NCBI GenBank assembly: GCA_024402505.1
Contig: JAKSTP010000002.1
Span: 63,530 to 127,529 of the forward strand
Length of the DNA: 64,000 nucleotides
Source: Treponema sp.
GTDB lineage: Bacteria > Spirochaetota > Spirochaetia > Treponematales > Treponemataceae
Direction: 5' to 3'
Made by a program: the position numbers and the translations under genes. Positions 19,935 to 63,601 of this stretch are shown one piece after another (position 1 is the first letter of the stretch; every line of letters starts with the position of its first letter). The notes beneath the pieces are model-generated. The model saw only the letters and a list, made by a program, of their open reading frames with translations. It searched no databases and was not told the origin of the DNA.

Positions 19935-20828
19935 TTATTTTCCTTCGTTTTCAATGTGCATTTTTTCAAGATTTGCCATGATTGCGTCAACAGTTTTCTG
20001 TTTTGGATCAGGTTCATCGGCTGGCAGTGATTCAAGAATCTTGTTGCGGAAGTCCTTACAGTCGATTACAGGGCTTGCAGTAAGTGTAACTTTGTCCTGG
20101 GCTACCACATCCATAATCATATTTTCAGGGCATTCAGGGTTGAAGCGCAGACAGTTTCCGTTGATTGAAACCAGAATCATTTTGTCAAAAAGGCGAAGAT
20201 AGCTGTCGATTTCCCGGAGACCTTTCTTTGTTTCAGGTTTGCCTGGACGATAGCGTGTGCCGCTTGGGAATACAAGAATTACCTGGCCGCGTTTTTTACA
20301 GGCGTCCATTGCACGCATGGCAGCAAAGTTGATTTTGCGGGCCCGTTTTTCTTCTTCTTCTTTTTCTTCCTGAGAGATTTCTTTTGCTCCAACTGCATCA
20401 AGGCTTCGTGTAGGATAGATTACAACTCGTGTAAAACATTCTGCAAATGCACGTACAGCAGGATCAGCTTCGTTCAGTTTCATACCGGCAACGGCAACGA
20501 TTTTTTTTGAGAAGTCTTTTGACCAGTCTTCACCATATTTGTCCAGCATGTATACGATTTCAGGAAGGTCCAGGTTTGTGTAGTGTTCCATAAGGATAAG
20601 CCCGGATTTACCATTCTGAACTTCGTCGTAGAAAGCTTTGAAATTTTCAACGGCGTTCAATCCGCTTCCAGGAAGAAGGTTGTCATCAAGAAGGGTGAAC
20701 ATGTATTTTTGAATATCTAAGTTTGCTTCTTCATAAACTGAAGTTTCATCGATTTTGGCGGCGGCTCGAGATTTCTTAGCCATCTCTTTAATCATGCTGC
20801 CGTATTTTCCAGCCAATGTGTTGTCCAT
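19935..20828 (-). CDS. Glycerol-3-phosphate/lysophospholipid acyltransferase (PlsC-like)
   Basis: HxxxxD motif (EHYTNLD) and FPSGTR motif. Confidence 0.8.
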   Translation of the reverse strand: MDNTLAGKYGSMIKEMAKKSRAAAKIDETSVYEEANLDIQKYMFTLLDDNLLPGSGLNAVENFKAFYDEVQNGKSGLILMEHYTNLDLPEIVYMLDKYGEDWSKDFSKKIVAVAGMKLNEADPAVRAFAECFTRVVIYPTRSLDAVGAKEISQEEKEEEEKRARKINFAAMRAMDACKKRGQVILVFPSGTRYRPGKPETKKGLREIDSYLRLFDKMILVSINGNCLRFNPECPENMIMDVVAQDKVTLTASPVIDCKDFRNKILESLPADEPDPKQKTVDAIMANLEKMHIENEGK

Positions 20829-20875
20829 TGTTACGTCCTTATTTAAGTTTCAAAAAAGAGTAGAAATTATTTCTT

Positions 20876-20904
20876 ATTATACCCGCAAAATAAAGAGGTT
20901 TCAA
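20876..20904 (-). promoter_or_regulatory. Sigma70 promoter of the acyltransferase gene
   Basis: Minus strand TTGAAA-N17-TATAAT, about 50 bp upstream of the ATG. Confidence 0.8.
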
Positions 20905-20983
20905 CGGTGATTTATCAAGCCCCGCAGCGTGCCAGCAACTGTGGGGTGCGACGGCAAAGTTGTGCGACTGGGGTCGGGGGGGT

Positions 20984-21527
20984 GGCTACGGGGGTTGGGG
21001 CAGCGGGAGATGGGTGCCACAGGCCTCGGGTAGTGGCAACGGGGTTGGGGGCAGCTGGCCTCGGGGGACGGCAACGGGTCGTTGGGCAGTGGGCTTCGCG
21101 GGATGGTGGCGGGTCGTTTTACGCAGTGGGGTTCGTTGCGAGTGGCCTCAGGGGATGGCAACGGGGTTGGGGGCAGTTGAGTTCAGGTTGTGGCAACGGG
21201 GTTGGGTGCCGCGGGCCTCGCGGGAGTGGCAACGGGTCGTTGGGGCGGCGGGCTTCGGGTGGCGGCGACGGGGTTGGGTGCCGCGGGCCTCGGGGGGGCG
21301 GCAACTGGCGTTGGGCGACTGGCCTCGGGGGCGGCAGCGGGGTGTGTGCAGCTGGTCTCGCCGGGCGGCAACTGGCGTTGGAGGCAACGTACCTCGGGGG
21401 GGTGGCAGCTGGCGTTGGGTGCAGTGGGGCTCGGGTTGTGGCAACGGGGTTGGGTGCCGCGGGCCTCGGGGGGCGGCAGCGGAGTGTGTGCAGCTGGCCT
21501 CGCGGGGCGGCAACGGGCGTTGGGGGG
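20984..21527 (+). repeat. G-rich degenerate minisatellite, ~15 units of 33-37 bp
   Basis: Consensus GGCAACGGGGTTGGGTGCCGCGGGCCTCGGGGGG(T/C); unit starts at 20999, 21035, 21070, 21105, 21157, 21192, 21228, 21264, 21300, 21333, 21367, 21404, 21440, 21475, 21509. Confidence 0.9.
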
Positions 21528-21538
21528 CAAATTCGGAC

Positions 21539-22076
21539 TTTTACGGAAATCGCTGCATATTTCCCTAAATTCTCCGTAGGAATTTGGAAATTTTCGGGAA
21601 GTTTTTTGAAAAAAATGTAAAACTACGAAGAATTTTCCATTTCCTAAGGATTTCTCCGTAATTTTTGTAACAGAAACCGTCTGTTTCCCACTGAAATGGC
21701 AATTTTTTACGGAGAGTGTGCCAAAACTGAGAATCTCTCCGTAAATTTTCAGAAACAATATTCAAAATTTTTAGCTAAATCTAAAATTTTACGTAGAATT
21801 TTGCTGTTTTTTAGGATTCTCCGTAATTCCTGTTGCAAAAGCCAACTGTTTTTCGGTGAAATGGCAATATTTACGGAGAGTGTGCCAAATCTGAGATTCT
21901 CTACGTAAATATTCAAAAACATCCATCAAAATTGTTGGAAAAACAATAATATTACGGAGATTTTTACATTTTCCCCCAAACTCTACGTAGAAAATTGAGC
22001 TTTTACGGGAAATTTTTTGAAAACACTAGAGAAACTACGGAGAATTTCTCATTTTCTGAAGAACTCTCCGTAGTTT
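21539..22076. repeat. Periodic array of 7 palindromic elements (TACGGAGA-N~20-TCTCCGTA), 81-84 bp period
   Basis: TACG...CGTA spans of 36-37 bp at 21542-21578, 21624-21660, 21708-21743, 21790-21825, 21872-21907, 21953-21989, 22036-22072; extra half-site at 22004. Confidence 0.9.
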
Positions 22077-22127
22077 TCGCAGAATTAGACAAATATAGTA
22101 CAGTTTTAGAACGAAAAATGGTACAAA

Positions 22128-22979
22128 TCAGGAAATGGCGCACAGGTCCCGCACAACTTCGCCGGCAATGAGAAGACCTGCGACGCTCGGAACAAAACTG
22201 CAACTGGCAGGGGCCGGCCCGTTGCCCTTGAGAGGCACTTTCTCCGCAACAGCCCCCTCGGTAACACAGTTCGCACAGCCCGCTGTACCATTGGCAGCAC
22301 AGTTCGCACCGCCCTCGATAGCCCCGCTCAGCGCAACGGCAGTGCCCTCGGTAACGCAGTCCCCCACAACGGCCCCGCCATTGGTAGCACAGTTTACAGG
22401 GGGTTCGTCGCTCCAGAGGACTTTTACTTTGGTAATGTGGCGGGCTTTTAGTTCGCGGCGCATTACTCTGGCCAATGGGCACACGCTGGTCTTTGAAATG
22501 TCCGTTATTCTGAAACGATCAGCATAAAGCTTGTTGCCGGTGCCCATACTTGAAATAACTGGAACACCTGCTGCCTTTGCGGCCGAAATAATGGCAATTT
22601 TGGCAGTCACCGTATCAATGGCATCAATAACATAATCAAAGACAGAAAAATCAAAGGCAGAGGCATTTTCCGGCAGAAAAAAAGTCTGGTGTGGAACAAT
22701 GTTTATATCAGGATTTATATCTCGGGCACGGATAGCGGCCACTTCAACTTTTGGCATGCCAATGTTGCTCTGAAGGGCAATGAGCTGTCGGTTCAGATTG
22801 CTTTCCGCAACAGTATCGTTATCAACAATGTGGATGGTACCTACGCCGGCGCGCACTAAAGCCTCCAGTGTAAAAGAACCTACGCCGCCAACTCCGAACA
22901 AAAGGATTTTCGCGCCGGCCAAACGGTCAATTGCCGCTTTTCCCAAAAGTCGCTGGGTTCTCGAAAACATTTCCGACAT
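22128..22979 (-). CDS. tcdA: tRNA threonylcarbamoyladenosine dehydratase (ThiF/E1-like) with a Cys-rich insertion
   Basis: GVGGVGS, DNDTVAESNLNRQ, DAIDTVTAK, SSMGTGNK, CPLARVMRREL, SCSFVPSVAG. Confidence 0.9.
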   Translation of the reverse strand: MSEMFSRTQRLLGKAAIDRLAGAKILLFGVGGVGSFTLEALVRAGVGTIHIVDNDTVAESNLNRQLIALQSNIGMPKVEVAAIRARDINPDINIVPHQTFFLPENASAFDFSVFDYVIDAIDTVTAKIAIISAAKAAGVPVISSMGTGNKLYADRFRITDISKTSVCPLARVMRRELKARHITKVKVLWSDEPPVNCATNGGAVVGDCVTEGTAVALSGAIEGGANCAANGTAGCANCVTEGAVAEKVPLKGNGPAPASCSFVPSVAGLLIAGEVVRDLCAIS

Positions 22980-23032
22980 GGTGCCTCTCTACAAAGCCAC
23001 CGCTTCACACTGGCAGCCTTTCTCCATCATTT

Positions 23033-25423: not shown

Positions 25424-25460
25424 TACGGAGCAAAAACACAAAGTTTGCCAAATCTCCGTA
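25424..25460. repeat. Solitary copy of the TACG-N29-CGTA palindromic element
   Basis: TACGGAGCAAAAACACAAAGTTTGCCAAATCTCCGTA, 37 bp, same geometry as the 21.5-22.1 kb array. Confidence 0.8.
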
Positions 25461-25539
25461 ATTTTTTGAAAATCACCGTTTATCCGCCAAAAACAGGCCA
25501 ATTCTCCGCGGCAGACCAAATCACTTCCATTACCTTGAA

Positions 25540-63527: not shown

Positions 63528-63601
63528 AAGACTCCTTGCAAAGGCTTTGTGTTGTTGTGTGTGGTGTGTGCCTTCTGATTTTTGGTAGTTTTCTGAAAAG
63601 G

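Follow-up and report, generated by a model that had tools for sequence, protein, structure and literature searches.

Between an acyltransferase gene and a TcdA-like gene in the genome of a gut Treponema lies a tandem array of G-rich units next to a cluster of phased palindromes, which raises the question of whether this tract is a gene, a recombinogenic or structural element, a modifier of the neighbouring promoter or a repeat for which no regulatory role is needed. The array was analysed within a window (the whole stretch of DNA under study, 64,000 nt) corresponding to positions 63530–127529 of contig C12 of assembly G000. This source genome is a metagenome-assembled genome (MAG) of 2.48 Mb in 83 contigs, 92.4% complete and with a GC content of 39.8%. 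Orthologues of the neighbouring genes carry Treponema names and originate from rumen and gut isolates and MAGs, and the sequencing runs found to contain array sequence are animal gut metagenomes.

The spacer comprises 1.3 kb without a credible gene between the start of the acyltransferase gene (20828) and the stop of the TcdA-like gene (22128), with the G-rich array occupying the left 0.6 kb and the phased palindromes the right 0.55 kb. The downstream neighbour (19935–20828, minus strand) encodes a PlsC-type acyltransferase (PF01553, 23.4 bits with a cut-off of 23). Treponema orthologues of this protein bear the names 1-acyl-sn-glycerol-3-phosphate or glycerol-3-phosphate acyltransferase. The promoter, on the array-facing side of the gene, is of the sigma-70 type (TTGAAA-17-TATAAT, 20876–20904, minus strand), matching the consensus at 11 of 12 positions. 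Both hexamers and their spacing are kept in the array-free relatives L042 and L057/L058, and the placement of the repeat beside this promoter in the original prediction is borne out. The upstream neighbour (22128–22979, minus strand) belongs to the ThiF family (PF00899 at 1e-39); TcdA was the best NCBIfam model for it, at a score below the model cut-off, and in a search for further alleles the exact protein was carried by the source assembly only. RNA contigs from one metatranscriptome covered the acyltransferase gene only (20300–20392 and 20580–20847), the missing cover of the array being uninformative.

The array itself (20960–21527, G-rich strand plus) was resolved into approximately 16 degenerate units of 33–37 nt. 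Manual phasing gave 14 full units, preceded by degenerate sequence that begins at about 20960 and followed by a last unit cut short at 21527, with the hand-split units of 33–37 nt running from 20999 to 21508; none of the runs compared carried this window allele (594 nt), the exact unit count of which is that of the MAG assembly alone. These 14 or so full and two partial units agree well with the minisatellite of about 15 degenerate 33–37-bp units that had been predicted. Tandem Repeats Finder (TRF) reported a period of 35 nt with 10.8 copies (21144–21524, 71% matches), a super-period of 72 nt with 4.7 copies (21192–21525) and a further 35-nt pair at 21049–21118. The mean column identity among units was 78%. 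Self-identity at a lag of 35 nt was 0.484 as opposed to 0.355 ± 0.018 in shuffles (7 sd above), with further peaks at lags of 72, 107, 142 and 176 nt, and blocks of the array spaced 142 nt apart were 91% identical. The peaks at 72–176 nt indicate that blocks of two to five units were duplicated again, giving higher-order blocks of 72 nt and 142/176 nt, and the hierarchy of repeats from 35 to 176 nt is typical of unequal exchange.

The composition of the array sets it apart from the remainder of the genome. Base counts over 20960–21527 were A52, C120, G296 and T100, i.e. 52% G and 21% C on the plus strand, which contains 46 runs of three or more G and none of three or more C. At 73% GC the 500-nt segment holding the array is the maximum of the genome, the runner-up reaching 54% and the genome mean being 39.8% (sd 4.0). 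The description of a tract much richer in GC than its flanks with dozens of GGG+ runs on one strand was thus accurate. BLAST detected the array at a single locus of its own genome, and among 20 long tandem arrays found by a genome-wide TRF search it is the only G-rich one. Its left edge is variable: at 20937–20959 (plus strand), a comparison of contig L040, sister species L042 and the window showed degenerate G-rich sequence in place of about 40 nt of an ancestral terminator-like hairpin. Repeat-derived G-rich sequence therefore starts at about 20937–20960, which is 33–56 nt from the −35 box. The distance of about 80 bp originally given holds for a start at 20984 but not for this nearer edge.

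An alien composition in a short-read MAG could mean that the array is an assembly artefact or chimeric foreign DNA, such as a host minisatellite or poly-G noise, and contig-end poly-G artefacts do occur in related MAGs. However, the same array with both of its flanks was found in an independent run (L040), with fragments in another study. It is also built on a 35-nt structure and not on homopolymers, and it lies at least 21 kb inside a 127-kb contig. This explanation is therefore exceedingly improbable, and it can be regarded, along with a coding function, as essentially excluded.

A coding function is brought up by overlapping long ORFs of 237, 202, 191 and 121 aa on both strands, one of which is annotated in the public assembly (P0125), and the array could on this basis be a gene for a Gly/Ala/Arg-rich or Pro-rich repeat protein. 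However, the six frames hold 0–2 stops each where 1.8–3.5 are expected from composition, and their openness is thus explained by base composition. As the unit does not have a length divisible by three, successive units are read differently in every frame. The 237-aa ORF matched no Pfam family and had no relative beyond its own annotation among 5.8 billion proteins, and most of it is missing from a short allele of the array described below. The probability of a repeat-protein gene is accordingly close to nil. The array is non-coding and its ORFs are composition artefacts, which removes the objection, raised along with the original prediction, that one of them might be a real repeat protein.

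Nor did the array resemble a structured RNA. Rfam searches gave no match to it at gathering thresholds or at E ≤ 1, the only matches being chance miRNA-like ones that all fell in the palindromes, and an alignment of 13 units yielded no consensus structure (−0.44 kcal/mol). The C-rich strand folded as RNA was equal in stability to shuffles (z −0.27), while the G-rich strand folded as DNA was mildly stabler than shuffles (z −2.7). A conserved hairpin within the units was considered and rejected, as none was found in the folds or in the unit alignment.

A potential for quadruplex (G4) formation had been noted for this tract, and it is substantial when set against the rest of the genome. Six of the 11 non-overlapping canonical G4 motifs (G3+, loops of 1–7 nt) of the whole genome lie inside the array, which also accounts for 20 of 26 positions scoring at least 2.0 with G4Hunter. 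This makes the array the dominant G4-prone site of the genome. The strongest predicted motif (20970–21000, plus strand; regex match C12:84499–84529) has four runs of G4–G7 with short loops, and is also the sole four-layer G4 retained in a G4-aware minimum-free-energy fold. Against the array's own dinucleotide shuffles the picture is different. The shuffles contained 3.8 ± 1.3 motifs compared with the six observed, with 11% of them reaching six, and the mean G4Hunter score was 1.19 for the array and 1.18 for the shuffles. In a G4-aware RNA fold about two quadruplexes survived ordinary pairing, fewer than in shuffles. The invariant columns of the unit are GGC, GC and TC and not the G-runs, and four G3+ runs, with loops of 2–7 nt, are present in some units only. 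As motif count and G4Hunter score are close to those of shuffles and the G-runs are not the invariant columns, the capacity to form G4 appears to be a by-product of composition; it is real but does not look like a selected feature. Motif counting and G4Hunter scoring, both proposed as checks at the outset, thus support the predicted G4 potential in the genome-wide comparison but not beyond what base composition provides.

The phased palindromes on the right of the spacer had been joined to the G-rich array as one combined 1.3-kb element, and this part of the prediction does not hold. Seven palindromes of 37 nt, of the type TACGGAGA-N21-TCTCCGTA, follow the stop of the TcdA-like gene at 21541–22076 in a strict phase of 81–84 nt with double units of about 165 nt, and the RNA fold of this region has a z-score of −5.3. 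The same palindrome family forms two more arrays without the G-rich minisatellite (C23:27276–27731 and C24:27237–27523, with a phase of 83–84 nt), the three arrays holding 7, about 6 and 4 copies, and it also occurs as solitary copies, one of them at 25424–25461. A kinship between the minisatellite and a short G-rich head of the C23 array was rejected, its score being no better than that of shuffles. The palindrome family was not found in 150 same-genus genomes, and a scan of all GTDB species returned four single, unrelated terminator-like hairpins, approximately the chance rate. On these sequence comparisons the palindromes are a separate, species-specific family of the REP/BIME kind. Like the REP/BIME elements of Enterobacteria and Pseudomonas they are extragenic palindromes of 35–40 nt in regular clusters downstream of a stop codon, and a genome holds several arrays as well as solitary copies. 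They differ in that their sequence family is restricted to one species and in that no RAYT (Y1 transposase, PF01797) was matched in the 92.4%-complete genome, an absence which is not proven at that completeness.

Several further observations concern the palindromes. Their arms do not co-vary, which suggests that they are protein-binding half-sites rather than hairpins. Contig L040 (positions 1–100, window 21652–21816) carries one 165-nt double unit more than the window, with a joint from 21816 to 21652, and the palindrome cluster is on this evidence also variable in copy number. Tandem arrays of other palindromes with a period of 80–87 nt (or 166–187 nt) were found by the genome-wide TRF search at C7:16302–16594, C33:7136–7378, C21:8681–8846, C28:8668–8869, C18:33531–33950 and C9:53062–53421, and clusters of palindromes phased at about 83 nt seem to be a common arrangement in this genome.

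The G-rich array was then considered in terms of its distribution. It had no BLAST match in 200 family genomes, and the clustered unit-type G4 pattern was absent from 400 family genomes, the matches there being singletons or contig-end poly-G. Orthologous acyltransferase genes in 22 genomes of the same genus had no such array upstream. It was also absent from a sister species in which the acyltransferase has 94% aa identity, and from L057/L058 (95% aa identity). Exact-pattern scans for the unit and for the junction of array and palindromes found neither in GTDB genome contigs or JGI metagenome contigs, and BLAST of plasmids and phages with the array gave no match. From these searches the arrays appear in one species only. 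It should also be noted that long poly-G runs occur within the first 100 nt of contigs in several related MAGs (G078, G152, G206, G279, G447 and others); these look like two-colour sequencing artefacts, which a survey of genomes could take for G4 motifs.

The array forms part of a lineage-variable segment (20913–23029) of 2117 nt, for which L057/L058 have 67 nt (blastn of L057 against the window; gene maps of L042–L058). In L057/L058 an EEP-family gene directly abuts the acyltransferase promoter, and in the sister species L042 an EamA fragment and a NUDIX-HD gene lie at the same site beside a tcdA remnant (aa 77–107). A comparison of the window with L042, L047, L057 and L058 accordingly showed three states of the spacer that separates the acyltransferase gene from the gene of the EEP-family phosphatase/nuclease, namely direct adjacency, a tcdA remnant with the EamA fragment and NUDIX-HD gene, and an intact tcdA with the arrays. 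These three states indicate that tcdA is ancestral at the site and that the spacer is a rearrangement hotspot.

Such a hotspot, with tcdA lost or truncated and the EamA fragment and NUDIX-HD gene inserted in close relatives, together with the presence of G4 motifs, could be explained by a G4 which initiates recombination in the manner of that at pilE and so drives rearrangement of the locus. However, the rearranged relatives are those without the array. Moreover, the array is unique in its genome with no donor or silent copies, and no adjoining plus-strand promoter was found for the G-rich strand. A recombination-initiating role is for these reasons very unlikely.

More informative are the differences between strains. 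Logan contig L040 (run X1) encodes an identical acyltransferase and differs from the window in one of 638 flank bases, and yet the length separating the anchors GCGTGCC and CAAATTCGG is 156 nt in L040 as opposed to 594 nt in the window. L040 retains a terminator-like hairpin with trailing T's, some 40 nt of ancestral sequence that is also present in sister L042 and has been lost from the window, and its array starts inside this hairpin. L040 is not a simple de Bruijn collapse of the window allele, since that allele lacks most of the 15-mers of L040; L040 may nevertheless under-count its own units. An adaptor-flanked fragment from a second study has a third arrangement in which 54 nt are replaced by 16. 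All these allele lengths were taken from de Bruijn contigs of short reads, in which repeats can be broken or collapsed, and exact counts need long reads. Contigs of the low-depth DNA runs X3 and X4 break off at the edges of the array or close to them (20833 and 20954), as expected for a GC-rich repeat, and this is no evidence of absence. At the level of contigs, then, unit number varies between strains (594 nt, 156 nt and the third arrangement, in independent samples), as the original prediction had supposed in calling the array a VNTR, and the array evolves much more rapidly than the flanking sequence. Its persistence in samples of several studies implies that it is not quickly lost.

Variation of this kind could make the array a tunable promoter modifier or contingency locus, in which unit number or G4 folding alters transcription of the acyltransferase gene, and the array end does lie 33–80 nt upstream of a near-consensus, conserved promoter. 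In pathogenic Treponema the length of a poly-G tract near tpr promoters modulates expression. Against this, genomes with a long array, a short array or none do not differ in the promoter core or in the 33 nt that precede the −35 box. The changes in length are distal and come in steps of 35 nt, leaving promoter spacing unaltered, and G4 motifs are not enriched beyond composition. Promoter and acyltransferase protein do not differ between the strain with approximately 4 units and that with approximately 16. Promoter modification is thus distinctly unlikely.

The most attractive of the functional rivals, though still a doubtful one, is that the array is a transcriptional insulator between tcdA and the acyltransferase gene. 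Read-through from the TcdA-like gene would have the G-rich strand as template, and the untranslated C-rich RNA so produced would serve as a Rho loading (rut) tract while quadruplexes on the G-rich template block RNA polymerase; in detail, the array would substitute for the intrinsic terminator hairpin which it disrupted. The minus-strand RNA would comprise about 570 nt of untranslated and unstructured sequence (z −0.27) with 52% C and 21% G, and Rho is encoded in the genome (Rho_RNA_bind match, 115 bits). A rut tract is expected to be untranslated over at least about 80 nt, C-rich, G-poor and poorly structured in a genome with Rho, and the tract has all of these, which are features of composition only. 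No intrinsic terminator was predicted in 20700–22300, and the start of the array falls within a terminator-like hairpin which the sister species retains and whose place the array has taken in the window. However, the strain with about 4 units keeps the same gene arrangement, and the transcript could already be terminated or stabilised by the REP-like hairpins that immediately follow tcdA. The C-richness also merely complements the G-richness of the other strand, so that this fit is not independent evidence. The stronger proposal that the tract is a selected, length-tunable barrier, with a G4 template and a Rho-loading transcript insulating the acyltransferase promoter and with unit number setting the expression of a membrane-lipid acyltransferase, is unlikely.

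The reading preferred here, which is probable though by no means certain, is that of a young intergenic VNTR, non-coding and rapidly evolving, which arose through slippage and unequal exchange and is specific to one animal-gut Treponema species. It is suspected that the array grew from a short G-rich seed located at the former terminator hairpin of the spacer or next to it, with replication slippage and unequal exchange multiplying this seed into 35-nt units. Two-, four- and five-unit blocks would then have undergone further duplication, and the array would have kept expanding, contracting and diverging much faster than its flanks. The outcome would be a tract of 570 nt, 52% G on one strand, in which several G-quadruplexes are possible in principle. 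Its G-rich strand would be the template for read-through from tcdA and, by local GC skew, for leading-strand synthesis, and any effect of the array would most likely be passive and exerted on transcription entering from upstream. A regulatory role is unnecessary to explain the data, neutrality being the default and not a result. It must be added that slippage accounts for the repetition and not for the G-richness of the tract (73% GC and 52% G in a 40% GC genome).

The replication orientation was deduced from GC skew. The leading strand usually has more G than C. The background skew of the contig is −0.05 to −0.07 over 110 kb, that of the array being +0.42, and taken together with the above rule the negative background suggests that the G-rich strand of the array is the leading-strand template. 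This would be the unstable orientation for G4 minisatellites in yeast, the instability of which depends on replication direction and on short loops according to the statements in PMC6614823 that draw on its references 33 and 63. An orientation-dependent instability of this kind would feed length variation, and by analogy it fits the variability of the array. The skew of contig C12 was also seen to change sign near 110 kb, from about −0.055 (1–110000) to +0.055 (110001–120000). This switch, at about 46–56 kb of the window and near a tRNA-Ala gene and an accessory tract, may represent a replication origin or terminus or a rearrangement.

With regard to known systems, the array has the features by which bacterial intergenic VNTRs are recognised, i.e. 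head-to-tail units of about 10–100 nt, a non-coding position and a strain-variable number. As in the MIRU-VNTR loci of Mycobacterium tuberculosis, units of tens of nt are arranged head to tail in a non-coding spacer of co-oriented genes, with a number that varies between strains and a function that is unproven. MIRUs are dispersed over about 40 loci with a genome-like composition, whereas the array occupies one locus, lies 33 GC points above its genome and is strand-asymmetric. The GGGNATC repeats of Xanthomonas and Nostoc have 7-nt units, occur at hundreds of loci in each genome, favour arrays of exactly four units and have been shown by CD to fold into G4 (Rehm et al., 2015; PMC4692102). The array resembles them in being G-rich, quadruplex-capable, located between co-oriented ORFs, as they mostly are, and variable in unit number. 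It differs in its 35-nt unit, its approximately 16 units at one locus, its irregular G-tracts without a four-tract preference and in that its G4 is predicted from sequence (comparison with PMC4692102). Bacterial intergenic VNTRs of the MIRU type and the G4-forming Xanthomonas and Nostoc repeats (PMC4692102) are the closest known kinds, from which the array is set apart by its 35-nt unit, single locus and extreme compositional contrast.

More distant likenesses were also noted. The vertebrate minisatellites CEB1 and CEB25, as studied in yeast, share with the array a unit of 35–40 nt, strand-asymmetric G-richness, higher-order variants and length instability. A further likeness may be that the G-rich strand of the array is, by GC skew, the leading-strand template, an orientation described as unstable for these minisatellites in the part of PMC6614823 that relies on its reference 63. 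Unlike the array, where only some units qualify, they are eukaryotic and have a regular, short-loop G4 in every unit. The G4 upstream of pilE in Neisseria gonorrhoeae is similar as a G4 motif upstream of a gene in a bacterial genome with few G4s, but it is one G4 of 16 nt that has its own sRNA promoter and silent donor copies for gene conversion, features which are all absent from the array.

The array alone reveals no new regulatory mechanism. It does provide a well-bounded example of a compositionally alien minisatellite arising and rapidly changing in a low-GC bacterial genome, and a natural test case for replication-direction-dependent instability of G4-prone repeats in bacteria. It is also a potential strain-typing marker for a gut Treponema species. 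If unit number did tune transcription in the spacer, the logic of contingency loci would extend from repeats of 1–7 nt to G-rich units of 35 nt, and a length-tunable barrier, if real, would amount to a minisatellite-based contingency locus in a commensal spirochaete.

A second repeat was observed in the neighbouring TcdA-like gene, which contains at 22200–22410 (minus strand) an in-frame GC-rich insertion encoding a Cys/Gly/Asn/Ala-rich repeat. Kinship of the array with this insertion was rejected, the two being on opposite strands with a best local score of 22 (shuffle mean 21.4). This coding repeat is also polymorphic, with other strains having a 33-nt in-frame deletion (22264–22298) and a 31-nt insertion near 22360.
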